A stretch of DNA of 51,312 nucleotides from an uncultured Methanosarcinales archaeon (GTDB lineage Archaea > Nanobdellota > Nanobdellia > Woesearchaeales > UBA525). Position 1 is the stretch's first letter; every line of letters starts with the position of its first letter. The position numbers and the translations under genes were made by a program. Below, piece after piece: positions 33,212 to 46,758 of this stretch. The DNA lies in assembly GCA_964432865.1 (NCBI GenBank), contig CAYSOY010000001.1:1-51312 (forward strand), written 5' to 3'. The notes under the pieces are model-generated. The model was given only the letters and a program-made list of their open reading frames with translations. It was not told the origin of the DNA and did not search any database.

Positions 33212-33229
33212 TTTTTCAATATTGAAAAA
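33212..33229. repeat. 18-bp perfect palindrome TTTTTCAATATTGAAAAA (copy 1)
   Basis: Read directly from the sequence. An identical copy is at 46682-46699 and a degenerate copy is at 40684-40698. Confidence 0.9.
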
Positions 33230-33759: not shown

Positions 33760-36700
33760 CTAAAACCACTTGTCAAGGTCTTCCTGTTTCTCGCTCTCTT
33801 TACCGAAAACAGACTCAACTCTCATCTTCAACAGTTCCAGGTCTTCCTTAAGATAAGGGTCGACTTCATACTTCTCAGCTATTTCAACACTTGGCTCGAG
33901 GTACTTAGTAATATTCCCCTCGGAAACAGTAAATATTAAACGACCATCGCATTCCTTGCAGTCCCCTGAGAGAGGTGGGCGTCTGTACTTTGTATTACAC
34001 TGGACGCATCTGAACTCCTGACTGGAGAACTTTTTCAAATTGCCCTTGATATCTTTCAAAAAATGTCTCTCGATAACTAACTTCGCTACTTTGCGGGGGT
34101 TGGAGGCTCTTATCTTCGAAGCCAGCTCCATCTGTCCTAAGAGTTTCTCTCTCATGCTGGGTAGGAGTTTGTAAGAAGAACACAGAACTCCTTTGTTGAA
34201 ATTGGTGGTGTCGTGTGTAAAGCCGTAGTTCTCAAACTGGTCCTCACTTCCAAGAACATCCGAGACCTGATCTACGGAGACCATCAAGGGCATCTTGTAC
34301 TGTTCAGCCGCTTTGTAGAACTCCAGCGGGTACTCCCAGGCGATGTCCAGGTGGAAAGCCATGTCATCAACTTCGGAAGGGTTCAAAAAGTAGGTCAGCA
34401 CCAGAGGAGAGTCCATCGTCCCCCCTCTTGTTTCAGGCAGGTACTCCTGGGAGAAGTTCAGAAATGCATCCATAAGAAGGATCATGCAGGACTCGTCCCC
34501 ATCACAGTCCCTCCTCATCGCTGCGTGGAACAAAGGGTGTGCCATGAACCCCTGTACTTTGCTAAAGCCTATTATCCGCCCTGTTATCCCCGCAGAAGTG
34601 TGTGGGGCGAGGCCTATGATTTTGTGGCCGAGAAGGTCTTCTCTCTTGCTACAGTTGTAGTACGGCTTCATCCCGTAGTGCCTCTCCAACATCTCGTCTA
34701 TGAACTGAGTCACTCTCAAGAAGACTTCGTCTGCCGGCTCGTTCGGGCTTTTAGGAGAGCAAGGTATTATAACGTCCTGGGGCTTCATCTCTACCACCTG
34801 GTCTTTATCTTCTATCGGCTCGCCGTGTATGTCCTTTTTATAGCCGAGTTCTCTCAATTTTTCACAACTGACACCTATCTCTTTCGGCTTGAAGTGGGTT
34901 ATAGGTACCTCTGAACAGTCGTACTTCGTAGTCCCGTCCTTGTGAACGTGAAGGGAGTGCTTCGCTCTTAAGATGCCTTTCGCAAGGTGTTCAAGAGTTC
35001 TCTTCTCGTTACTTATACCTCTGACCCCTTTTATCATGTCGGGGTATACTTTGAAGTCCAGTCTCTCAAGTGTTTCATCAAACAAGGGCTGAATGTCAAG
35101 GGATTTCGAAGAGTAGAGTTGGGTTCTGTCATTGTATCCTTCGGTCTCCTCCAACTCGCATTTATTCCCGCAAAAAACGCACTTTGGATGTACTCTCTCT
35201 TCTTCGCATTCATTGCAGTAGTAATTTGGAAACTCTGCTTCTATCCTGCCTTCATCAAGAGCAGACTGTATGCTTCTCATCCTCCCTCCTTGTTCTCCTA
35301 CGGGAAAGAGCATGTGGGGGCTTCCTTTCATCTTCCTCATCTTGGCTTTCTCGGGTCTGCCCATTCTCATACCTATGAATACTCCTGCCTTGTCCTTCAC
35401 TTTAACCGGTGAGAAGTCGTTGATTACTTCAAGAACCTCCTTGTCTTCGAACCCTCCCTCCTTTACTTTTTTAAAGATGGACTCTTTGTTCTCTCTGTTC
35501 TTATCTAAAGAAGTTATTCCCAGAGGTGTTGTCAACTGCTTAAAAGAGTCTCCTTTCAGAACTATGTACTCTTTTCCTGAAACTATGTGTTCTACGCCGA
35601 GTTTTTCAAGTACTTCTTTTAATTCTTCTGAGTTGCCGAGGATTATCTTCTCTTCCTCTTTAGATATCTCTGCGCCGTTGATTCTCTTCAGCAACAGTTC
35701 CATCTCGTCTTTGCTCAGCAACTTCCAGAACAAGGTGTGCTGTGCGTGGAGAGGGATTGAAAACTCTTCTGATATTAGAACTGCCTCTTCGAAAGAGGGC
35801 TTATTCTTAAGGGGGTTCTCCACAAACTCTTTTATACTGTTCGCAGAGAGTTCAATTTCGTCACTGCTCCTTCCGTTATTTTCAGAATGGGCTTTCTCGG
35901 AAAGTTTTTTTCTGGAGCTCGCTCCGAGGTTTATCCTCTGGGCACTTTTCTCATAGTCCAGTTCGGAGAAGGATTCTTTTATGCTCTTCTTCAATTGCTG
36001 AGACCAGTACTCCTCTGTGTAGCCCGGAGGAATCAACTTGTGTGCTCTGTCAAAGAAGTCTCCGAAGTTTACAAGAACATCCCCGAGGTAGAGTATCTCT
36101 TCCACCTTGTTCTTTTTACTCAACTTCTTGGCCTCCTCCTCTGAATTGACTCTTCGTACAGAGCCGTCTCTGAGAAGAACTATAGGCCCCTCTATTGTAT
36201 CACAGCACATGAAAGTAGTTGCCTTGCCCGGCCTCTCTGTCTTTAACTGCGTGGCTGACGCTATGAAGTCTTTCAACAGGTGCATCGTCGCGGGGTGTAT
36301 CGCCTCACCTGAAAACCCTGAGACTCTGGACCTCCCATACCTTAAGCGGAATCCTCCTGGCTCGAGGGGAAAGCCGAAGACAGGTCTTCCGGCGACAAGG
36401 TCTTTAATATAAGTGTAGTTCGGCGACAGTTCTTCAGACTTCGAAGAGTCTTCGTCGTCTTCCGAGCCCTTTCTTGCCTTGACTTTTTTCTGGAGTTCGA
36501 TGAATTCCTCTAAAAAGCTCCACTGCTCCATGTCAAACTCCTGGTACCATTCTTCAATCCGAGCCCAGAGTTTGGGCGCTTTCAAAGGAAGACAGGAACT
36601 GTGTATGAGGCAGTACCCGCTCCGTAGAGTATCAGTCTCAATTCTTGAAAGGTTCTTCAACTTAACGTTCGAGACCTCGTACCTCTCGGAAGGTGTGCCT

Positions 36701-37389
36701 GCTATTGCTACAGGCAGGTTGTTCATCATAAACATACTCTCTTCTTTACTCGGATAATACTGCAAGTTGGTGACGTAGTCGTTGTAGTCTCTCAGTTCAG
36801 CATAGCACCTTCTTTTCTCCTTCTCGCTCGGATCATATTCTTCATAGCCGAGTTTTTTCCTGACGTAGTCGGCTATCAGGACAGAGACAGAAGCGGCTGT
36901 TCCCCCCGCATTCCTTATCGGGCCCGAGTAGTTGAGTTGAAAGTATTCGCCTTTACCGTCCCTCCTCTTCTTTATATCCAGTGATGAAAACCCTTCCAGA
37001 GGGGAGGAGACCACTCCAACTGTCACGTAAGCGAACCCTACTCTTATACCTGTTTCTATTGCTTCTTTCTCTGACTCGAACTCACAGAATTCTTCCTTGG
37101 ATATCTCTAAAGCTACTTTAAAAGCGACTCGCCAGTCAAGCACACCATACTCCTCTTCCAACTCAGATATTCTATCTTTTATGCCAGAGTCTCTTATCTG
37201 CGGTGCGACTACTGAGATAAGTCCTATAACTCTGTCCGTGAGGGTCTCTGCCAGTGTTATCTCTACTTCCGCCTTTGGATCGAGTCCTTTCTTCCTGGCT
37301 TTTTCAGCGTAGTCATAAGCCTCCAGACAACTATTCTTTATCTCCTTAAAATATCTCTTCATCTCCTTGCTGTATTCTTTTCCGCTCAT
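33760..37389 (-). CDS. DNA polymerase II (PolD) large subunit DP2
   Basis: 1209 aa, recognised as a PolD catalytic subunit from memory of the family. Cys clusters are CNECEEERVHPKCVFCGNKC and CVQCNTKYRRPPLSGDCKECDG. No intein-sized insertion. Confidence 0.9.
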   Translation of the reverse strand: MSGKEYSKEMKRYFKEIKNSCLEAYDYAEKARKKGLDPKAEVEITLAETLTDRVIGLISVVAPQIRDSGIKDRISELEEEYGVLDWRVAFKVALEISKEEFCEFESEKEAIETGIRVGFAYVTVGVVSSPLEGFSSLDIKKRRDGKGEYFQLNYSGPIRNAGGTAASVSVLIADYVRKKLGYEEYDPSEKEKRRCYAELRDYNDYVTNLQYYPSKEESMFMMNNLPVAIAGTPSERYEVSNVKLKNLSRIETDTLRSGYCLIHSSCLPLKAPKLWARIEEWYQEFDMEQWSFLEEFIELQKKVKARKGSEDDEDSSKSEELSPNYTYIKDLVAGRPVFGFPLEPGGFRLRYGRSRVSGFSGEAIHPATMHLLKDFIASATQLKTERPGKATTFMCCDTIEGPIVLLRDGSVRRVNSEEEAKKLSKKNKVEEILYLGDVLVNFGDFFDRAHKLIPPGYTEEYWSQQLKKSIKESFSELDYEKSAQRINLGASSRKKLSEKAHSENNGRSSDEIELSANSIKEFVENPLKNKPSFEEAVLISEEFSIPLHAQHTLFWKLLSKDEMELLLKRINGAEISKEEEKIILGNSEELKEVLEKLGVEHIVSGKEYIVLKGDSFKQLTTPLGITSLDKNRENKESIFKKVKEGGFEDKEVLEVINDFSPVKVKDKAGVFIGMRMGRPEKAKMRKMKGSPHMLFPVGEQGGRMRSIQSALDEGRIEAEFPNYYCNECEEERVHPKCVFCGNKCELEETEGYNDRTQLYSSKSLDIQPLFDETLERLDFKVYPDMIKGVRGISNEKRTLEHLAKGILRAKHSLHVHKDGTTKYDCSEVPITHFKPKEIGVSCEKLRELGYKKDIHGEPIEDKDQVVEMKPQDVIIPCSPKSPNEPADEVFLRVTQFIDEMLERHYGMKPYYNCSKREDLLGHKIIGLAPHTSAGITGRIIGFSKVQGFMAHPLFHAAMRRDCDGDESCMILLMDAFLNFSQEYLPETRGGTMDSPLVLTYFLNPSEVDDMAFHLDIAWEYPLEFYKAAEQYKMPLMVSVDQVSDVLGSEDQFENYGFTHDTTNFNKGVLCSSYKLLPSMREKLLGQMELASKIRASNPRKVAKLVIERHFLKDIKGNLKKFSSQEFRCVQCNTKYRRPPLSGDCKECDGRLIFTVSEGNITKYLEPSVEIAEKYEVDPYLKEDLELLKMRVESVFGKESEKQEDLDKWF

Positions 37390-37477
37390 AGTTTACCTCA
37401 TAAGTTTATATAAGGGTTTATACAAAGTATTACAAAGTATACTTCATAATTTATCTATCGGTTGATTCTATGTTTTT

Positions 37478-39010
37478 TTATCCTTTGAAATTTATCACTT
37501 TTACATCTCTGGTTTTTAAGTTTACAAGAGGGAGCCTCGCGGGCTGGGGTTCAAGCCCTCTCTTTTTTTGGTCTTCCGAAATCTCAGACCAACAGGAGCA
37601 GTTAAGACAAGTTATTCCTTTATAATCTTTGTAGTCCATTCTGTGGATGTGCCCCGTTACAAAAATGTCAGGAACCTCTTCTATCACCATCGGGTCTTCT
37701 TCTGAGTCAGGAAGGTAGAGGTTGGAGTCATGGGAAGGAGCAAGGTGTCTTTTTCTGAGCAGAAGTTCCATCACAAGGTCTGACCTCTTCTGACCGCCTT
37801 TCTCCCTTATGTAAGGGATCTCTTCAGAATAGTATATCAGGGAGTAGCCGTGGTACACGAGCACTTTGAACCCCTCAAAGTCTTCAGTCGCGCCTAACCT
37901 TACAAAAGAAGGGTTGCTTGTTAAGGTCAGGTTCTCCATCTCCTTTGCGCCTTGGAGGTACTCTTCGCCCACGGCGCTCTGAGGTTCTTCCAGCCTTGTG
38001 GCGTCGTGGTTTCCCGGCGCGAATACTATTGACTTGTCCGAAGGTATTCTCTTCAAGTATTTCATAAACTGGGAGTACTGGTCTTTTATACTTTTAACTT
38101 CTAAATCCTCTTCTTGATCTGGATAAATACCGACTCCCTCTATACCATCTCCAGGTATTATTATGTATTTCACCTTGGAGGCTATTCTCCTCTGGGATTT
38201 GTTCCCGAGTTCACCTCTCAACCATTTTATCATTCTGTTAAACTCTTTCTCCATGAAAAGTTTTGAACCCACGTGTGGGTCTCCTATCACCGCAAGATAC
38301 TCTTCTTCTGGAGACTTCTTCACTTCTCTGTTGATTGGGAAGTCAGGAAAGATTATTTCGTTTATGAAAATCACGTCTCCTGTAAACTGACCTTTTATCG
38401 CTATTACTTCGTCCAGGACTACTTCGTCTCTTTTTTTAGAAAGGTCTTCTTTTTCTTTTGTAAGTATTGTTTTTATCTCGTCGGTAGGGTCTTCAAGAGT
38501 TATCATCATGTGGTTCTTCTTTGTCTTCCTTTTCTCCTTTACCATTCCTATTACTGAGACTTCTCCTCTGTCGTTCTTCGAGTTTATTCTTCTTATAGAC
38601 GTAGTTCCTGACACGTCAGGTCTTTTTCTTAGTATACTTTTCAACTTGTTGTACTTCTGGTTGAAGTATTCCACAAAATCCTCGTATTCTCTGTTATCTG
38701 ACTTCTTTCTATAGTTCATCAGAAAATCGATGTTTTCGTCTCTAACTCGGTCTTCTTTATTCTCGTCTTCTTCTCCTTCTTCAACACGTTCTCTTTCTTC
38801 TCCGCCGGTTTTATCAACGTCTTCAACTTCGTCTTTGGAGAAATTTATATTTTCAACTACGCCCGAATCTTTTCCTTTTTCCTCCAAGAGGGTCTTCAAC
38901 TTGTCTTTAGAAAGACTGTTTATAGAACTCAGTTCTTTTACGATTTCTGGACTTACAAGCACTCCTTCATCGAGAAGTTTTCTAACAATTCTCTTAACAT
39001 CAATTTTCAT
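37478..39010 (-). CDS. DNA polymerase II (PolD) small subunit DP1 (exonuclease)
   Basis: Calcineurin-like phosphoesterase motifs GDPHVGS, PGDGIEG, PGNHD and VTGHIH follow an OB region. ATG 39010 lies 2 nt after the cdc6 stop (TGA 39015-39013), suggesting translational coupling. Confidence 0.9.
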   Translation of the reverse strand: MKIDVKRIVRKLLDEGVLVSPEIVKELSSINSLSKDKLKTLLEEKGKDSGVVENINFSKDEVEDVDKTGGEERERVEEGEEDENKEDRVRDENIDFLMNYRKKSDNREYEDFVEYFNQKYNKLKSILRKRPDVSGTTSIRRINSKNDRGEVSVIGMVKEKRKTKKNHMMITLEDPTDEIKTILTKEKEDLSKKRDEVVLDEVIAIKGQFTGDVIFINEIIFPDFPINREVKKSPEEEYLAVIGDPHVGSKLFMEKEFNRMIKWLRGELGNKSQRRIASKVKYIIIPGDGIEGVGIYPDQEEDLEVKSIKDQYSQFMKYLKRIPSDKSIVFAPGNHDATRLEEPQSAVGEEYLQGAKEMENLTLTSNPSFVRLGATEDFEGFKVLVYHGYSLIYYSEEIPYIREKGGQKRSDLVMELLLRKRHLAPSHDSNLYLPDSEEDPMVIEEVPDIFVTGHIHRMDYKDYKGITCLNCSCWSEISEDQKKRGLEPQPARLPLVNLKTRDVKVINFKG

Positions 39011-39012
39011 TT

Positions 39013-40233
39013 TCAAGCCAAACTAACTTCCAACTCTTCTTTCAGAAGAGTTCTTACCCTGTCTTCTATGCCTTGTGTCATTGCAAGATTTATCTCTCTT
39101 GTCCTTCCAAACCTTCCTTTGCTGACTACTTTGGCGTTTATTATACCCAGCATGTCGAGTTCTCCTATAATATCTGATATCCTCCTCTGAGTTAGAGGTC
39201 TCAGCGTGGTGTTCTTGGAGAGTTCCTTGTAGTAACTATATATATCTCCCGTGCAGATAGGCTTTTTTTCATCTGACTGCTGATCCAACTGCATTATCGC
39301 CAGAAGTGTGAGTTGGGACTGGCTCGGCTGGCTTTTGATAATCTCCTGTATTTTGTCTTTCTCTATTTTGTCCTCTGCTATATTGAGATGTTTTATTCTT
39401 ATTTTTTCATCACCTCTCCTTTCTGCCAGTTCGCCAGCCACTCTTAGTAGTTCTAAAGCTCTTCTTGCATCTCCGTGTTCTCTCGCTGCGTACGCAGAAC
39501 ATTTTCTTATCATCTCTTCTTTCAACACACCATCGTGAAATGCGTTCTCTGCTCTCGACTCAAGTATCGACCTTATCTGAAGAGCGTCATACGCGGGGAA
39601 GAGAACCTCTTCTTCAGACAGGGAAGATTTGACTCTTGGGTCCATGTTGTTGCTGAAAGAAAGACTGTTGGTTATTCCTACTACGGATACTTGTGAGTTT
39701 TTAAGATCTGAGTTTATTCGTGTAAGGTTGTAGATTGCTTCGTCACCTGCTTTTCTTACTAAGTGATCTATCTCATCCAGGATGAGGATTACTATTTTTC
39801 TCTCTTCATCCAGGGCGGAGAAGAATGTGTTGTATACTTCGTCTGTCGGCAGTCCCGTCGGTGGTATGGATTTTCCGAGGAAACGCGCGAGTTGAGCTAC
39901 TAAACGGTACTCTGTGTCTGCGCATTTCTTCAGTTTGCAGTTGAGGTAGAACATTTCTAAAGGAATATCTTTCTTATCCGCTGTGTTTTTCATTTTTTCC
40001 ATTATATATTTTATAGATAGAGTTTTTCCCGAACCTGTTTGTCCATAGAGGAAGAGGTTTGAAGGGTTTTCTTCTCTGAGTGCGGGCGCGAGTATGTTGG
40101 CGGTCTTGTTTATCTGCTCATCTCTGTGAAGTATGTCGTCGGGTATATGTTTGGATTGAAGAACATCTTTATTTTTGAATAGAGATGTTTTGCTCATGTA
40201 GTCCTCGAAAAATTTATTAAGTTCAATGCCCAT
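39013..40233 (-). CDS. cdc6: Orc1/Cdc6 replication initiator
   Basis: Walker A YGQTGSGKT, Walker B LILDEIDH, sensor motifs, and a C-terminal winged helix (RRISDIIGELDMLGIINAKVVSKGRFGRTREI). Confidence 0.9.
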   Translation of the reverse strand: MGIELNKFFEDYMSKTSLFKNKDVLQSKHIPDDILHRDEQINKTANILAPALREENPSNLFLYGQTGSGKTLSIKYIMEKMKNTADKKDIPLEMFYLNCKLKKCADTEYRLVAQLARFLGKSIPPTGLPTDEVYNTFFSALDEERKIVILILDEIDHLVRKAGDEAIYNLTRINSDLKNSQVSVVGITNSLSFSNNMDPRVKSSLSEEEVLFPAYDALQIRSILESRAENAFHDGVLKEEMIRKCSAYAAREHGDARRALELLRVAGELAERRGDEKIRIKHLNIAEDKIEKDKIQEIIKSQPSQSQLTLLAIMQLDQQSDEKKPICTGDIYSYYKELSKNTTLRPLTQRRISDIIGELDMLGIINAKVVSKGRFGRTREINLAMTQGIEDRVRTLLKEELEVSLA

Positions 40234-40403
40234 TTTTATTTCAACTATTATTTATTTTTATCTGTTTTTATTAGTTTAACAATCTTGCCCCCTTCAAGTT
40301 TTCTGCTACATTTTCCAAAAGAAACCGAGGTTATATAAATTTATCTATTATGGAAAACATATTCTAAAAATCATAGTTTCAAGTAGCCATAACCCACCCC
40401 TTT

Positions 40404-40418
40404 GTTTCATGTGGAAAC
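40404..40418 (+). repeat. ORB-type dyad GTTTCATGTGGAAAC
   Basis: Read directly from the sequence. The extended match CACCCCTTTGTTTCATGTGGA (40395-40415) recurs at 46574-46594 with one mismatch. Confidence 0.7.
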
Positions 40419-40624
40419 TGGTCTTTTAGTAAAAGTTGTTTTAAGTTTTTTATTTTATATTATTCTTTATGTAGTATAAATTTTAATTTTTCTCCGAGGA
40501 TTTCTCCTCTAATTACTTATATTTGTTATTGTATTTATACTTGCTATACTATTTCTTCTACTTCTTAGTTTCCTCTTTCTTGTTTTTATTTTCGTCTTTA
40601 AATATTGTATTTAAGAGTTCTGTT

Positions 40625-40637
40625 TTCCACTTGAAAC
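40625..40637 (-). repeat. ORB-type element TTCCACTTGAAAC (= GTTTCAAGTGGAA on minus)
   Basis: Read directly from the sequence. Its orientation is opposite to the 40404 copy. Confidence 0.65.
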
Positions 40638-40798
40638 AAGGTTTTTATTACTATATAATATAATATTAATTATAATATATTTATTTTCTATATTGAAATA
40701 AATTAAATTTTAAAAAGCAGAACATATTACTTATTTTATCCAGTCACTTAAGATACTAATACTTACTCTCTTTTTCACAATTTTATTTTATACTAAGG

Positions 40799-40811
40799 TT
40801 CCACACGAAAC
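40799..40811 (-). repeat. ORB-type element TTCCACACGAAAC (= GTTTCGTGTGGAA on minus)
   Basis: Read directly from the sequence. A weaker fourth copy, TTCCAAAAGAAAC, is at 40313-40325. Confidence 0.65.
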
Positions 40812-40938
40812 CATGGTGTCTCACTGAAAAACACCAAAAATAATTTTAACTACCTTAAAATAATAAAAACCAAAAGATTTATAAAGAACAGGTCATTATC
40901 CAAACAATACGAAATTAATTTGAGTCAATGGTGAAAAA

Positions 40939-41763
40939 ATGATTGTAGAAAAAGAATTCCTAAACAAAATAAAGAAGTTCGGAATAAACACGTACGAAGC
41001 AAAGATATGGACAGCGCTTCTTTCAAGAGGGGTCTCCACAGCAGGAGAACTTTCGGAAATATCTGACGTGCCTCGAAGTAGAAGCTACGACGTTCTCGAA
41101 AGCCTTGAAAAAAAAGGTTTTATAATAAGAAAAGTAGGAAAACCTATAAAGTACATAGCTGTTTCTCCAGAAGAAGTCTTGGAGAGAGTTAAGAAAAAAA
41201 TAAAGAAAGACTCTAAAAAGAAAAGAGAATCACTTGAGGATATGAAGGATACTGAGACACTCAACGAATTGAAAGAACTCCACAAAAAAGGAGTAGATAC
41301 AGTAGATCCATCCGAAGTCACAGGGGCTTTAAACAACAGAGAGAATACTTATGATCAACTAATGAGTATGATAAAAGGTGCAGAAGAGTCTATATACTTG
41401 TTAACGACTCCTCAAGGAATGGTTAGAAAGTCCAAGGTTTTAGAGAGATACCTCTACAAGGCTGCAGAGAGAGGAGTGGATGTAAAAGTATCAGCTCCGA
41501 AAACTGAAGAAGTAGAGGAAATTTTCGAGAGAATAAATCAGTTCGGAGAAGCAAGGTATGTGAAGGATATAGAATCAAGGTTCTGCATAGTAGACAAGGA
41601 AGAACTAATCTTTATGCTGATGCACGACGAAGAAGTCCACCCTGTCTATGATGTCGGCGTATGGGTGAATACACCTTTCTTTGCCGAAACACTGTCAGAA
41701 CTCTTTGAAAAAGCGTGGGAGAGCGAAGAGAAGAGCATCAAAGTTGAAGCCAAGAACAAATAA
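40939..41763 (+). CDS. TrmB-family transcriptional regulator
   Basis: INTYEAKIWTALLSRGVSTAGELSEISDVPRSRSYDVLESLEKKGFI is the TrmB wHTH. A PLD-like C-terminal domain follows. Confidence 0.8.
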   Translation: MIVEKEFLNKIKKFGINTYEAKIWTALLSRGVSTAGELSEISDVPRSRSYDVLESLEKKGFIIRKVGKPIKYIAVSPEEVLERVKKKIKKDSKKKRESLEDMKDTETLNELKELHKKGVDTVDPSEVTGALNNRENTYDQLMSMIKGAEESIYLLTTPQGMVRKSKVLERYLYKAAERGVDVKVSAPKTEEVEEIFERINQFGEARYVKDIESRFCIVDKEELIFMLMHDEEVHPVYDVGVWVNTPFFAETLSELFEKAWESEEKSIKVEAKNK

Positions 41764-41908
41764 TTTTCTTTTTTTTAACTGATTAATCAGAGAACAAAAA
41801 AATAAATAGATTTAAGAGTGTTCTAATCAACTTTTTTTTACTACTTGCTTCTATTTCTGACAAAACTTAACAAAAAAGTATATAAATAAGTTTTTTATTG
41901 GATAAATC

Positions 41909-42763
41909 ATGGTATTAGAGAATATCTTGTCGGCTGAAAAGGCAGAGAGCAGTCCTTTCCGAATGGTCTTTCTTGGTTTTTTATTCGTTGCGGTAGGCTC
42001 TTTTCTCGGTTTCCAGGTTTTCAAAAAATACTCTTCATTACTTTCAGTCTTCCTCTCTGCCATGGCTGCTATTCCTTTGATGATAAAGATAATAAAGATG
42101 GAAGAGGAGAAAGACCTTGAGGGGAAGAAAGAGTTGTGGTTGTTGAAAGAGCACTCCAAGGCACTCCTAAGTTTCTTCTGGCTTTTCATAGGAATGACTT
42201 TGGCTTTTACTGCGATATATCTTCTTGTTCCTTCTTCAACACTCAATGTTCTCTTTGAAGCTCAGACGAATACGATAACCAGTATAAATTCAGGAGTCAC
42301 ATCCTTCTCCACTGCGTCTTTCCAACACTTCACCGATATTTTTATGAATAATCTTCTTGTTCTTTTCTTCTGCGCTCTCTTCTCTCTTCTCTACGGCGCC
42401 GGAGCGATTTTTATACTCTCTTGGAACGCCTCTATAATTGGAGTTGCGATAGGAGATTTTATAAGGTCTGGCTTGACGACGTACTCGCACCTGTTGGGGT
42501 TGGAAAAAATTGCGCAGTACTTCCAGGTAGTAGGAGTAGGTCTTTTGAAATACGTAATTCACGGGGTTCCTGAGATACTTGCGTATTTTGTTGCCGGGCT
42601 CGCTGGAGGAATAATTTCAAAGGCGGTTGTAAACCACGATTTTGGAACGAAGGATTTTGAAAAAGTTCTTTTAGACTCCGCTGATCTTCTGCTGTTGAGT
42701 TTTGTACTGCTTCTGCTGGCTTCTGTTTTTGAAGTCTGGCTCACACCTCTCGTTTTCTCATAA
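41909..42763 (+). CDS. SpoIIM-like (DUF95) membrane protein
   Basis: FMNNLLVLFFCALFSLLYGAGAIFILSWNASIIG and HGVPEILAYFVAGLAGG are typical of the stage II sporulation protein M family. Confidence 0.7.
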   Translation: MVLENILSAEKAESSPFRMVFLGFLFVAVGSFLGFQVFKKYSSLLSVFLSAMAAIPLMIKIIKMEEEKDLEGKKELWLLKEHSKALLSFFWLFIGMTLAFTAIYLLVPSSTLNVLFEAQTNTITSINSGVTSFSTASFQHFTDIFMNNLLVLFFCALFSLLYGAGAIFILSWNASIIGVAIGDFIRSGLTTYSHLLGLEKIAQYFQVVGVGLLKYVIHGVPEILAYFVAGLAGGIISKAVVNHDFGTKDFEKVLLDSADLLLLSFVLLLLASVFEVWLTPLVFS

Positions 42764-42827
42764 AAATAATCTCTTTATTACCGTATTTTTTCTCTGTTTT
42801 TTAAACATTCTTTTTCTTATAGAATTT

Positions 42828-43490
42828 CTATTCAAGAACTTTTATCCTGCCTGCTTTCACTTCAAAAATTTCTCCTTCTCTCATTAAGAAGTCCAGTTTC
42901 TTTTCTGCACCGTCTCCGTGCTTCTCTATGACTTTATCTATATCAACTCCGTCCCCTGAGTCCATATCTTTTATAGTTTTAAGAAGATCTTTTGTAAGAA
43001 CTTTATTCTTCTCTTCTTTTTTCTTCTTTCCTTTCTTTACTTGTTCGCTTCTGTCTTCTTCTTGACTAACTCTGCTTTTCTTCTTCTCTTCCTTCTCCTT
43101 TTCTTCTATATTCTTGAGTTCTGTGTTCTTTTCAAGTTCTTTCTTTCTGTGCTGGAGCCACTTCCTCTTCTGCTTCTTCACTATCTCAAGTCTAATAAAC
43201 TTTCTATCATTGTACACTCTCGGTCTTCCCACTACCAATATTACATCTCCTACTTCTATATCTTTAAGAGGGTTTTTCTCTTCGAAGTTTCTTAGAAGAA
43301 TCTGCCCGCTTCCATCGTCCAAAACTCCTCTGTCTTCTCCCTTGGATATGAGAACTCCTACAAGGTTGGCTCTTGAAACTTTAAGTTCACCTCTTTTTAC
43401 ATAGTTTGGGCTCCACCCTTCTTTCACAACGTACTTGCCGTTCAGAATATTCTTCACATAACATTTTTTGGCAATCTCTCTCTGGACCAT
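42828..43490 (-). CDS. OB-fold DNA-binding protein with C-terminal winged helix (RPA32/Stn1-like architecture)
   Basis: OB fold: ANLVGVLISKGEDRGVLDDGSGQILLRNFEE..VGDVILVVGRPRVYNDRKFIRLEIV. A K/E-rich linker follows, then the wH LLKTIKDMDSGDGVDIDKVIEKHG..LDFLMREGEIFEVKAGRIKVL. Lies immediately downstream of mcm. Confidence 0.55.
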   Translation of the reverse strand: MVQREIAKKCYVKNILNGKYVVKEGWSPNYVKRGELKVSRANLVGVLISKGEDRGVLDDGSGQILLRNFEEKNPLKDIEVGDVILVVGRPRVYNDRKFIRLEIVKKQKRKWLQHRKKELEKNTELKNIEEKEKEEKKKSRVSQEEDRSEQVKKGKKKKEEKNKVLTKDLLKTIKDMDSGDGVDIDKVIEKHGDGAEKKLDFLMREGEIFEVKAGRIKVLE

Positions 43491-43579
43491 TTTAAACCCG
43501 TCCCCCACTTTTCTTTTAACTCTTTTTGAGTCTTTTATGACTTATTGAATAACTGCTGAGTTTAAAACTTTTATTTAAT

Positions 43580-45604
43580 CTATTTCATCTTTGAAATCTT
43601 CCCTCTTTTTGGGCTATACAGATCGCCCGACCTTTTCATCTTGTCTATTATCTCCTCTGTTTTCTCTTTGCTGATATCTCTTATCTCTGCCTCTTCTATA
43701 ATCTCTTCTATTTCCATCTCGTTGTCCGTCTTTTCTTCCAACTCGTCGATGATATCTCTTATTACTGTTATATAATTTCTCTGACTGGCGGTGATACCTG
43801 TGCTGATCTTGTCTATGTCTATCTCTCCTGTTTCAGGGTCTATACTTATCTTCTTCAGGCAGAAGTGGAGGAGTTCCACTGCTTTCTCGGCGTCGCTCCT
43901 CTTAACTTTTTTTCCAAGGCGCATCTTTGAGTTCGCTTCCGCCAGACGAACAAGTGCTTCCAACTGCCTCGCATTTATAGGAACGGTGTTGAATCCTTCC
44001 TCTTTATTTCCTTTCTTCCTCATCTTCAGATAGTAGTCTTTCAATTCATCGACCGCCGCCTCTGTCAAATCCGGGTTTTCTGCGTCTTTCTTCGCGTAGG
44101 CTATGTATTTTCTTAGTATGTCAGTCTCTATCTCTGCTTTCTCGGGGCTTCGCCTCTCTTTATGAATCTCCAGTATGAAAGAAGCCATTTTTTCATCTCT
44201 GTCTTCGTCGGGCAGGTCTTTTATAGGAAATATAAGATCGAACCTGTTGATAAGCGTCGTCGGGAGGTCTATCTGTTTAGGAATCTCTTTGTACGGGTCA
44301 AATCTTCCGAACTTCGGGTTCGCAGCTGCCAGAACTGTTGTTTCGCTCTTCAGTGTTGCCTGGATGTTGGCCTTGTTTATCGTTATAGTCTGTTGCTCGA
44401 GGGCCTCGTGCATGGCTGTCCTGTCATCTTTGTCCATCTTGTCCAGTTCGTCTATACAGCATATTCCTTTGTTGGCAAGCACCAGCGCTCCTGCTTCCAG
44501 AGCCCAGCCTTTTAAGAATTCGTCCTTGACTACTGATGCAGTCAGACCTGCTCCAGAAGCTCCTTTGCCCGAGAGATATCTTGCCTTCGGCGCGACCTCT
44601 GACACTCTTTTGAGGAGTTGGCTCTTTCCCGCTCCTGGGTCTCCTATGAGAAGGACGTGTATGTCGCCTCTGTTCTGTACTTCACCCGAGGTTTTTTTGC
44701 ACCCCCCGAATAGTTGGAGAACCAGCGCATCTTTTATTTTCTGGTGTCCATAGATGTTCGGAGCGACTGAGTTTCTGAATTCTTTCTGAACGTTTTTTGA
44801 TTCACTTATCTCCCTTATCTCTTTGAGTTCTTCAGAAGATATCTCTATGTCTGTAAATTTTTCGTGTATTGGTTCTATATAGTTCGATTCTATTTGGAGG
44901 TCGAACCTTGTGGATTTTCCCCCTCTTTTATGCATCACAGGTATCTCATTCAACTTCCCCACGACTTTGACTTTTGAACCAGGGCTTGTTCTTTTCTCGT
45001 TTATCGGGCTTACAAGATCTTTTTTTACTATGGCGTCTATTCTCTTTGGCTGAGCTCCTCCCTCTATGTCCTCTGTGGCTTCTTCCAATACTATTCTCTG
45101 CGCGTCTACGAGTTCTTTGCTCAGCATACGGAATTTGCTCTTCCTTCCGCAGGAACACCTGTTCGGTTCTCTGAACTTTGATTTTTTTTGTAGCACAGGT
45201 ATTATGTTTCCGCAACTTGGGCATTCGAATCTTGCACTTGTCACCTGCGGTCTTACATCTGATTTCTGCCTCACCACACCCGCAACTTGGATGAGTTTGT
45301 CTATGTGTTTGCTTCGTAGGTTGCTTATCATTACTTCCTGGCTTTCAGGAAGGTCTTTTATTCTGAGGTTGAAACTCTCCGTGTCTCCTTCGAGGTCCAG
45401 TTTGTTGACTGCTTCTCCTCCAGCTTTCAGGGTTTCTTCAGGGGTCTCCAATAGTACCTCTGCGAGTTCCGGATGGAATTTTGAAATCTTGGTGAACTCT
45501 ATTGGAAGAAATTTGTACCCCTTTCTTACTTTTTCAAGTAGTTGGTCGTAGTATTCTGTTTCGAGGAATTTTTGAAATTTCTTTATCTGTTCTGCATATT
45601 CCAT
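43580..45604 (-). CDS. mcm: MCM replicative helicase
   Basis: Zinc ribbon CPSCGN..CSCG, Walker A GDPGAGKSQ, Walker B CCIDELDKM, Arg-finger region NRFDLIF, C-terminal wH. Confidence 0.92.
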   Translation of the reverse strand: MEYAEQIKKFQKFLETEYYDQLLEKVRKGYKFLPIEFTKISKFHPELAEVLLETPEETLKAGGEAVNKLDLEGDTESFNLRIKDLPESQEVMISNLRSKHIDKLIQVAGVVRQKSDVRPQVTSARFECPSCGNIIPVLQKKSKFREPNRCSCGRKSKFRMLSKELVDAQRIVLEEATEDIEGGAQPKRIDAIVKKDLVSPINEKRTSPGSKVKVVGKLNEIPVMHKRGGKSTRFDLQIESNYIEPIHEKFTDIEISSEELKEIREISESKNVQKEFRNSVAPNIYGHQKIKDALVLQLFGGCKKTSGEVQNRGDIHVLLIGDPGAGKSQLLKRVSEVAPKARYLSGKGASGAGLTASVVKDEFLKGWALEAGALVLANKGICCIDELDKMDKDDRTAMHEALEQQTITINKANIQATLKSETTVLAAANPKFGRFDPYKEIPKQIDLPTTLINRFDLIFPIKDLPDEDRDEKMASFILEIHKERRSPEKAEIETDILRKYIAYAKKDAENPDLTEAAVDELKDYYLKMRKKGNKEEGFNTVPINARQLEALVRLAEANSKMRLGKKVKRSDAEKAVELLHFCLKKISIDPETGEIDIDKISTGITASQRNYITVIRDIIDELEEKTDNEMEIEEIIEEAEIRDISKEKTEEIIDKMKRSGDLYSPKRGKISKMK

Positions 45605-45820
45605 CTTTTTATACTATTTTATACTATTTACTCTATATTGCTTTTGTCTTTCTTTTGCTTGAAGTGGTCTCTTCTCTACTGTTCTACAGATTAGGACAGA
45701 AACCCCCAGTTAATACCAACAATTAAGTTGAAGAGCAGATACTTTTTCAACGTTTTGGTCGTGCTGTCGAATATTCTCTGTTTCTTTCACAAAGTTTTCG
45801 ACATCTATTGGTGTTGGTTA

Positions 45821-46381
45821 TTAGTCCAGATTTGTCAACACTTCTATGAGTTTCTCTACTGCTTTGTCTACTTGCTCTTCTGACTTGGTTCCTGTACAGA
45901 CGATTTTTCCGTTTGTAAACAATAGGAATGTGGCTTTTGCAGCCATAAGTTTGTAGACTAGCCCGGGGAACTGTTCTGGTTCGTACTCTGTGTTCTCCAG
46001 TTTCATGGCGAGTTTGTTCAGGTTTACGTCCATTCCTATGTTTCCGGATGCTACCATGTTTTGAATGGTTATATCCGGTTTTACCCTGATTTCTATGCCT
46101 ATTTCTTCGACGCTGTCAACTATCTTCTCAACACTTCTTTCTGCCTCTTCGAGGCTGTTTGCTCCTGTGCAGACGATTTTGCCGGAGCTGAATATAAGCG
46201 CTGAGGTCTCTGGTTCTTTTATTCTTAGGACCAATCCGGGAAACTGCTCGGGATTATACTCTGTGTTGCTCAGCATCGCCGCCATCTTTTCCAGAGGCAC
46301 GTCGTGTTCCAAGTTTGTAGAAACAACAATATTCACTATCTCTGTATCATTTTTTTCTTTTTTCTTTTGGTTAGTTTTCAT
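45821..46381 (-). CDS. tbp: TATA-box binding protein
   Basis: Two direct repeats: EYNPEQFPGLVLRIKEPETSALIFSSGKIVCTG and EYEPEQFPGLVYKLMAAKATFLLFTNGKIVCTG. Confidence 0.92.
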   Translation of the reverse strand: MKTNQKKKEKNDTEIVNIVVSTNLEHDVPLEKMAAMLSNTEYNPEQFPGLVLRIKEPETSALIFSSGKIVCTGANSLEEAERSVEKIVDSVEEIGIEIRVKPDITIQNMVASGNIGMDVNLNKLAMKLENTEYEPEQFPGLVYKLMAAKATFLLFTNGKIVCTGTKSEEQVDKAVEKLIEVLTNLD

Positions 46382-46486
46382 TATTACAACCCCCTTTATA
46401 AACTGAAAATCAAGGGCTATTTATAAATGCTTTTATTTTTCAATAGATCTTTCACTTGCAATATATTATAGAATACGTCAACCTTT

Positions 46487-46499
46487 GTTTCATTTGGAG
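46487..46499 (+). repeat. ORB-like core GTTTCATTTGGAG
   Basis: Read directly from the sequence, within CAACCTTTGTTTCATTTGGAGTTTTT. Confidence 0.55.
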
Positions 46500-46582
46500 T
46501 TTTTTATTTTCAATAGGCCTCCTCTAAAAACAACTTTTTTCATTACCTTTTTCTAATCTTAGTATACAAAATACACCCCTTT

Positions 46583-46595
46583 GTTTCAGGTGGAG
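46583..46595 (+). repeat. ORB-like core GTTTCAGGTGGAG
   Basis: Read directly from the sequence. It lies 96 nt from the previous copy. The surrounding sequence (46574-46594) matches the oriC ORB at 40395-40415 at 20 of 21 positions. Confidence 0.6.
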
Positions 46596-46681
46596 TTTTT
46601 CTTTTTTGAAACAAGTTTTTTTGTTTTTACATATCTTAATTTAATTCTTTTATACTTATTTATTAATATAAATAGTTTATT

Positions 46682-46699
46682 TTTTTCAATATTGAAAAA
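46682..46699. repeat. 18-bp perfect palindrome TTTTTCAATATTGAAAAA (copy 2)
   Basis: Identical to 33212-33229. Confidence 0.9.
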
Positions 46700-46758
46700 T
46701 ATTCTTTTTTGTTAGTAGACAAAACCCAAACAACAGATTATTCTCAAATCTAACTCTA

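Follow-up and report, generated by a model that had tools for sequence, protein, structure and literature searches.

Archaeal Orc1/Cdc6 initiators are regarded as origin-specific. What, then, could be the function of two sequences with the features of origin recognition boxes (ORBs) that are found upstream of tbp, the gene for the TATA-binding protein (TBP), some 6 kb from the cdc6-linked origin of an uncultured archaeon of the Woesearchaeales? The stretch of DNA analysed here (the window) comprises all 51,312 nucleotides (51.3 kb) of contig C1 of a metagenome-assembled genome of 872 kb, which consists of 59 contigs and is 85% complete; the functional statements made throughout are inferences from sequence. 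A first-pass annotation of the window had left three readings side by side, namely a second and possibly dormant origin, Orc1/Cdc6-mediated transcriptional control of tbp and mcm, and a relic of an origin duplication. The answer that we favor, and to which a fair probability can be attached, is that the tbp promoter, which drives tbp and probably also mcm and an RPA32-like gene, has incorporated the boxes in its upstream region as Orc1/Cdc6 sites.

Identity and rarity of the two boxes

The boxes lie in the 377-bp gap (46382-46758) that is upstream of tbp and downstream of orf553, a gene for a 553-amino-acid membrane protein located on the minus strand at the far side of the gap. Two direct ORB-like cores, GTTTCATTTGGAG at 46487-46499 and GTTTCAGGTGGAG at 46583-46595, are 96 nt apart and, like all the other strings quoted in the first-pass annotation, are found at the positions assigned to them there; a repeat search stretches this direct repeat to 29 nt, with 86% identity. 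The distal box, ORB-B (46574-46597, plus strand), is a full ORB endowed with a C-string; it reads CACCCC-TTT-GTTTC-AGG-TGGAG, scores 26.1 bits and, through CACCCCTTTGTTTCAGGTGGA (46574-46594), is identical at 20 of 21 positions to an oriC box at 40395-40415, as had been claimed. The proximal box, ORB-A (46478-46501, plus strand), scores 20.0 bits and has a weak C-string (CAACC), the corresponding weak G-string of the proximal box being found also in three relatives of the same family (G016, G010 and G006); the end of its core is 59 nt from the tbp TATA box.

Read on the tbp strand, ORB-B is TCCA-CCT-GAAAC-AAA-GGGGTG, and both ORB-A (TCCAAATGAAAC-AAAGGTTG) and ORB-B (TCCACCTGAAAC-AAAGGGGTG) display the canonical layout of the archaeal ORB. 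The core dyad TTCC(A)-N3-GAA(AC), of which "TTCC" and "GAA" are the ORB core motifs (PMC1904270), is present on this strand as CTCCAAATGAAAC and CTCCACCTGAAAC, and the G-string, by which a full ORB is distinguished from a mini-ORB, is present as AAAGGGGTG in ORB-B and as the weaker AAAGGTTG in ORB-A; the variants TGGAG and TGGAA are both seen at the oriC boxes of relatives. The same architecture, TTCCA/CTCCA-N3-GAAAC-N3-GGGG, i.e., a dyad core followed by a G-string, characterizes the ORBs of Sulfolobus oriC1, Pyrococcus oriC and Aeropyrum ori1. Judged by their sequence, the two boxes are confirmed to be genuine full ORBs, and they presumably share with the canonical oriC1-type ORBs the ligand, an Orc1/Cdc6 monomer bound with a defined polarity (PMC12141716).

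The scores given above were obtained with a 28-nt position matrix trained solely on the cdc6-adjacent boxes of the window genome and of 17 relatives. When the entire 872-kb genome is scanned with this matrix, six sites reach at least 18 bits, four of them in the cdc6-linked oriC and two upstream of tbp, as against a single site for the reversed-matrix control, and at a threshold of at least 20 bits the corresponding figures are four and zero. The core GTTTCNNNTGGA occurs in 17 copies over both strands of the 872 kb, whereas the extended context CC...GTTTC...TGGAR occurs in six, which are exactly the four oriC boxes and the two tbp boxes. Thus, the tbp boxes belong to the same family as the cdc6-adjacent ones and are rare elsewhere; since the motif does not occur at comparable density across many intergenic regions of the genome, the finding stands. 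The pattern CCNNNRTTTCNNNTGGA was likewise searched for in five nearly complete relatives, all of which have matches at oriC and four of which (all but G223) have matches also upstream of tbp, with 0-2 sites elsewhere; the matches falling at oriC or upstream of tbp are 3/3 in G034, 5/6 in G040, 3/4 in G044 and 4/6 in G063, and the reversed pattern gives 0-3 matches per genome. A third ORB locus was observed in a complete relative (L136, G063:C1:866800-870900), where two tandem ORBs 24 nt apart (positions 2040-2085) are set among at least six TGAGACA iterons and between small minus-strand genes, one of which is coiled-coil/winged helix-turn-helix-like; this locus could represent the origin of a mobile element that is integrated there.

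The presumed binder of both ORB clusters is the product of orc1/cdc6 (39013-40233, minus strand), which displays the Pfam Cdc6_C, Cdc6_lid and AAA domains and represents the sole Cdc6_C match in the genome. Could the boxes be read by another protein? Two candidates are available, a divergent Orc1/Cdc6 paralogue (28% identity; C3:38308-39249, minus strand), which this genome shares with nearly all relatives, and the TrmB-family regulator encoded beside oriC, whose gene is syntenic with the origin across the order. The gap beside the paralogue, where an origin was also looked for and rejected, is short, has a divergent gene for an ATP-dependent DNA ligase and contains no ORB-like repeats, which also speaks against the paralogue as the reader of the tbp boxes. 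In the Sulfolobales, the non-initiator paralogue Orc1-2 recognizes at promoters a short motif of its own, different from the ORB. It is true that Orc1-2, being a DNA-damage-responsive global regulator of transcription (PMC6061795, PMC9738581), offers an instance of an Orc1/Cdc6-family protein acting at promoters; the tbp boxes, however, are canonical ORBs indistinguishable from those of oriC (20/21 positions; 20-26 bits on a matrix built from oriC boxes alone), and this identity, unlike the case of Orc1-2, points to the initiator itself, leaving another reader with a slim chance. The tbp boxes of each genome do not co-vary with its own oriC boxes (mean identity 17.4 with its own and 17.4 with those of other genomes; permutation p = 0.56), and the ORB consensus is uniform across the Woesearchaeales.

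Register of the boxes with the tbp and mcm promoters

The core promoter of tbp (46420-46434, minus strand) consists of a TATA box, TTTATAAA at 46420-46427, and of a directly upstream AAAAGCA that resembles the transcription factor B recognition element (BRE); AAAAG(C/T)ATTTATAAA is found, with at most three mismatches, upstream of tbp in 84 of the 96 dereplicated Woesearchaeales tbp loci that constitute our sample. A second TTTATAAA box (46395-46402, minus strand) is located between the main TATA box and a Shine-Dalgarno-like GGGGG (46390-46394), whereas an TTTAAAAA-like box (46435-46446, minus strand; CTATTGAAAAAT on the tbp strand) is positioned upstream, its start preceding that of the main TATA box by 16 nt. 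The latter corresponds to the first ATTTTTCAATAG of the first-pass annotation, according to which each core is preceded by ATTTT(T)CAATAG; the motif is indeed present at 46435-46446 and at 46506-46516, yet as an ORB accessory it had to be rejected, its first copy being the TTTAAAAA-like box that is conserved in the upstream part of the tbp promoter.

When the loci are aligned on the ORB, most of those belonging to the 60-nt class defined below have TTTAAAAA-N8-TTTATAAA, the window having TTGAAAAA at the TTTAAAAA position, and the aligned loci share the promoter TTTAAAAA-N8-TTTATAAA-(N9)-TTTATAAA. Tandem TATA-like octamers (TTTATAAA or TTTAAAAA), in number of 2-4 per tbp gene and both up- and downstream of the main box, were observed in the relatives (L049-L135), those of the window being at 46395-46402, 46420-46427 and 46436-46443; tandem TATA boxes are present also in other orders of the class, without ORBs there, and may represent a device for TBP autoregulation by decoy or competing TATA boxes.

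With a cut-off of at least 12 bits and within 60-330 nt upstream of the tbp start codon, at least one ORB on the strand opposite to tbp is found in 70 of the 96 loci, many of which are close kin, and one in the other orientation in nine, about 0.4 chance matches being expected in total; counted as individual matches in relatives, the two orientations are represented 98 and 9 times, respectively. Loci with tbp ORBs span at least 18 GTDB families, and two ORBs are present in 27 of the 96, with a spacing of 83-86 nt in 24 of these 27. The gene upstream of tbp varies in both identity and strand, so that the element, with its fixed orientation, travels with tbp.

The position of the box follows the TATA box and not the start codon. 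Measured from the proximal core to the first T of the main TATA box, the spacing amounts to 60 nt in 24 loci, with TATA-to-ATG distances of 48-216 nt, and to 46 nt in 11 loci, with TATA-to-ATG distances of 54-137 nt, the extremes of the latter distance over the loci being 34 and 219 nt. The window belongs to the 60-nt class, its spacing of 59-60 nt being common to 24 other loci. Beyond the Woesearchaeales, no ORB is found upstream of tbp at seven loci sampled in other orders of the class, the tbp-mcm linkage and the tandem TATA boxes being kept; the sole core match near tbp in G213 is downstream of the gene, and in G140 none is found near tbp on the tbp contig. Paired cores present elsewhere in G213 (~46 kb from tbp) and in G144 may mark oriC.

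The association is not restricted to tbp. Where mcm is detached from tbp, i.e., at least 400 nt away from it (400-960 nt in the family of the window) or divergent, an extra ORB having the same relative orientation as the tbp ORB is found in seven of nine distinct genomes (G001, G003, G006, G010, G012, G014 and G016). The core of this mcm ORB ends 32-33 nt before the mcm TATA box, with leaders of ~22 nt and of ~190 nt alike, so that at the seven mcm promoters, as in the 60-nt and 46-nt classes of tbp, the spacing to the core promoter is fixed and independent of the leader length. The surroundings of the mcm ORBs are GC-rich and devoid of any AT-rich stretch or unwinding element, and origin activity is out of the question for a lone box so placed, which is a promoter element; this distribution, read from the sequences, shows that the ORB association extends to the helicase transcription unit as well as to tbp.

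In the window, the 216-nt gap between tbp and mcm contains no run of four or more Ts on the transcribed strand, and mcm has no Shine-Dalgarno-like sequence; the two genes may plausibly be co-transcribed in this genome. As a separate observation, ~1.3-1.4 kb of sequence without a match interrupts the tblastn alignment of MCM in the ATPase region at L035, L041, L043 and L048 (genomes G027, G009, G039 and G033, respectively), which is consistent with intein insertions in several relatives.

The gene identities proposed in the first-pass annotation hold, TBP, MCM, Orc1/Cdc6, TrmB, SpoIIM and the small PolD subunit being Pfam matches and orf226 being RPA32-like. The window carries a minus-strand run encoding PolD-large, PolD-small and Orc1/Cdc6 (39013-40233), followed by a 705-bp gap (40234-40938), by the TrmB and SpoIIM genes on the plus strand and by a minus-strand trio that precedes the 377-bp gap. 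This trio is formed by the RPA32-like OB-fold gene orf226 (42828-43508; PDB 8AAS/8C5Y RPA32, E = 1.5e-10), by mcm, the gene for the replicative helicase (43580-45604; Pfam MCM, E = 1.2e-92), 216 nt downstream of tbp, and by tbp itself (45821-46381; Pfam TBP, E = 3.8e-61), which would be the first gene of the controlled unit, the RPA32-like gene being third in a conserved tbp-mcm-rpa32 string. A comparison of synteny, of the kind that had been proposed, revealed that the gene island is kept across the order: in most genomes the pair of ORBs is followed by tbp, mcm and rpa32 in one direction, by spoIIM, polD-L, polD-S and orc1 in the opposite direction, and then by oriC and by trmB, which points the same way as tbp. 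In the window genome, in G001 and in G019 the orc1-polD block is inverted with respect to the tbp-mcm-rpa32 block (window 33760-46381 compared with L034-L048). In both arrangements tbp and mcm are transcribed away from their ORB pair, and the tbp-mcm order is kept across both the order and the class.

The inversion indicates that rearrangements have occurred in the island and, to this extent, lends something to the premise that the boxes are a relic without function, left behind by the duplication or rearrangement of an origin. Nevertheless, at least 18 families maintain their position, orientation and spacing in the midst of non-coding DNA that is otherwise unalignable, and TBP identities of 66-78% argue against very recent common ancestry as the source of this conservation. 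A register that is kept while the surrounding intergenic sequence has diverged leads us to reject the relic, whose probability we consider close to nil.

Less probable readings: a second origin or a sink for the initiator

The cdc6-linked oriC (40234-40938) contains ORB cores at 40314 (minus), 40404 (plus), 40626 (minus) and 40800 (minus); the cores, of both orientations, surround stretches with an AT content of 78-86%. Origins of the oriC1 type need inverted ORBs flanking an unwinding element, and disruption of this unit abolishes origin activity (PMC12141716). The tbp boxes depart from this scheme: they are direct repeats, both on the plus strand, without the inverted layout displayed by the genome's own oriC; they are separated by 6.1 kb from orc1/cdc6, the paralogue being on another contig; and they are in register with a TATA box, without any conserved unwinding element.

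An independent second origin, whether active or dormant, at which the same Orc1 is employed could nonetheless appeal to the boxes being genuine full ORBs and to the multiple and dormant origins known in archaea (PMC4595724). It could appeal, furthermore, to the DNA on the TGGA side of ORB-B (46597-46758), which is 83% AT over ~160 nt, ranks third in AT content among the 150-nt stretches of the window, harbors a palindrome and oligo-T runs downstream of orf553, and includes an inverted half box. This degenerate half box, AAAAACTTGTTTCAAAAAAGAA (46598-46620, minus strand), faces ORB-B but possesses the GTTTC half without the TGGA half, scores less than 12 bits and is not conserved in relatives, so that a full inverted partner is lacking. 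The same element accounts for the flank TTGAAACAAG(G)TTTTT, which had been described as recurring in the two clusters and is actually present at 46606-46620 and 40631-40646, the copy at 46598-46620 being merely the half box. Nor is the AT-richness of the flank a conserved property, the relatives having a median AT content of 0.675 in the distal flank, 0.69 on the promoter side and 0.60 over the locus as a whole; roughly half of the loci have an upstream open frame that terminates 4-60 nt from the distal box, and the equivalent single box at the mcm promoters stands in GC-rich DNA. The cumulative GC skew of the contig, a test suggested in the first-pass annotation, follows the gene strand, without any inflection at 46.5 kb, a distance of 6 kb from oriC being below the resolution of skew analysis and likewise of marker frequency on a metagenome-assembled genome. 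A second origin is therefore disfavored and its probability appears low, a small share being kept for its use in this particular lineage in view of the 83%-AT distal flank.

Two other constituents of the 377-bp gap were considered. The 18-bp palindrome, attributed to the cluster in the first-pass annotation, does occur at 46682-46699, yet TTTTCAATATTGAAAA is a generic motif with 14 copies in the genome at two or fewer mismatches, mostly in AT-rich intergenic DNA (in the window at 33212-33229, 40684-40699 and 46682-46699; elsewhere on contigs C2, C3, C5, C6, C8, C9, C11, C15, C34 and C51), and G021 and G025 have similar copies upstream of their ORBs; the palindrome, a generic site for a regulator or a terminator-associated motif, is not specific for ORB clusters, and as an ORB accessory it was rejected. 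A hidden non-coding RNA was likewise rejected, nothing credible being found in Rfam and no hairpin-type terminator being detected.

The closest precedent for the tbp boxes is represented by the cluster of ORBs and mini-ORBs located in dp1 of the Thermococcales (Matsunaga et al. 2007, PMC1904270), a conserved cluster outside oriC to which the Pyrococcus Cdc6/Orc1 binds in vivo as well as in vitro. Like the tbp boxes, these are conserved satellite ORBs a few kb from oriC, in an island of replication genes; unlike them, they are inside a coding sequence, ~2 kb from oriC, and have been read as part of initiation, whereas the tbp boxes are intergenic, lie 5-27 kb from oriC and are placed relative to the tbp and mcm promoters. 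The precedent gives substance to the possibility that Orc1 is bound at the tbp boxes mainly for the sake of replication control, any effect on tbp and mcm being secondary, either as a titration site at which the initiator is soaked up or inactivated just after the nearby origin has fired, like datA of E. coli, or as an accessory site of the origin domain that helps to assemble, together with oriC, an Orc1 complex of higher order, a role proposed for the dp1 cluster. In keeping with such a role, the boxes are always 5-27 kb from oriC in the Woesearchaeales, which implies that they are duplicated early, and there are two phased sites and not one. On the other hand, a pure sink needs neither a fixed orientation nor a fixed distance from the TATA box of 46 or 60 nt at tbp and of 32-33 nt at mcm, and the capacity of one or two boxes is small compared with that of oriC. 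Titration or an accessory role is for these reasons unlikely, albeit not negligibly so.

The initiator as a putative regulator of tbp and mcm

Of the three readings initially put forward, Orc1/Cdc6-mediated control of tbp and mcm is the one supported by the fixed orientation of the boxes, by their fixed spacing from the TATA box and by the existence of a separate ORB at the separate mcm promoters. According to this reading, each box would be occupied by one Orc1 monomer with a fixed polarity, its G-string end facing the promoter; two monomers ~8-9 helical turns apart would be on roughly the same face of the DNA, the end of the proximal one being ~45 nt upstream of the BRE/TATA. From this upstream site Orc1 could modulate the recruitment of TBP, TFB and RNA polymerase, so that the synthesis of the helicase and of TBP would be tied to the amount or to the nucleotide state of the initiator. 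Archaeal regulators bound upstream of the BRE usually activate, whereas those overlapping the TATA box or the transcription start repress; by this rule, and given the position of the boxes, activation is more likely than repression.

Several observations weigh against such a control. The 96-nt spacing found in the window is an outlier, exceeding by about one helical turn the 83-86 nt of most pairs, and the kinship among the sampled loci means that the counts overstate independent support. No ORB is found near tbp or mcm in genus g3 of the window's own family (eight genomes in which tbp was found; G017 gave no tbp match), nor in G026 and G029, which makes the element dispensable; in g3 the absence is apparently a lineage-specific loss. 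The ORB-to-TATA classes of 32, 46 and 60 nt differ by steps of 14 nt, which do not correspond to whole helical turns and speak against a single rigid geometry of protein-protein contact; the steps may depend on the choice made among the boxes of the tandem TATA array. The unusually AT-rich distal flank of the window, discussed above, belongs on the same side of the balance. Finally, chromatin immunoprecipitation on microarrays in Pyrococcus found oriC/dp1 to be practically the sole Cdc6 site, a situation contrasted by the authors with that of DnaA at promoters (PMC1904270). As to the organization of genus g3, it was observed that tbp is there 2-3 kb from mcm (L004, L009, L015-L017, L020, L022, L024 and L039-L041).

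A further observation concerns orc1 itself. In many relatives an ORB having ATATA/TATA in place of the G-string faces orc1 at a distance of ~10-45 nt from its start (L032, L035, L036, L038, L039, L042 and L045), the copy of the window being at 40305-40335, 81 nt from orc1; the layout suggests, being the one expected for it, a negative autoregulation of orc1.

A more ambitious version of the control of tbp by Orc1 would make the initiator a cell-cycle switch that, through two phased ORBs, activates the helicase/RPA32/TBP promoter, the same site acting in addition as a gene-dosage timer and as a datA-like initiator sink, so as to couple replication to transcription capacity. In such a scheme a site next to oriC would be duplicated immediately after firing, in a reduced genome without other known cell-cycle regulators; in this full form the proposal is rather improbable.

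The logic of the simpler reading, namely Orc1 sites built into the tbp promoter, is familiar from bacteria, where DnaA acts as a transcription factor (PMC8203912) and where, at the dnaA and nrdAB promoters among others, the origin-type site of the initiator is reused in front of replication-related genes (PMC8203912). The likeness does not go beyond the logic, insofar as neither the protein family nor the recognition sequence nor the transcription machinery is related and the function at the tbp boxes is deduced. In a full-text search of the literature, no account was found of ORBs placed at the promoters of tbp or mcm.

What would the finding mean? From a practical standpoint, ORB clusters alone should not serve to call additional origins in DPANN genomes. 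The idea is amenable to testing in vitro, the protein and its ~130-bp target being both defined by sequence. If it were true, it would represent the first clear case of an archaeal initiator that uses origin boxes as promoter elements, across a whole DPANN order, and would establish a feedback link between the initiator and the supply of the helicase.

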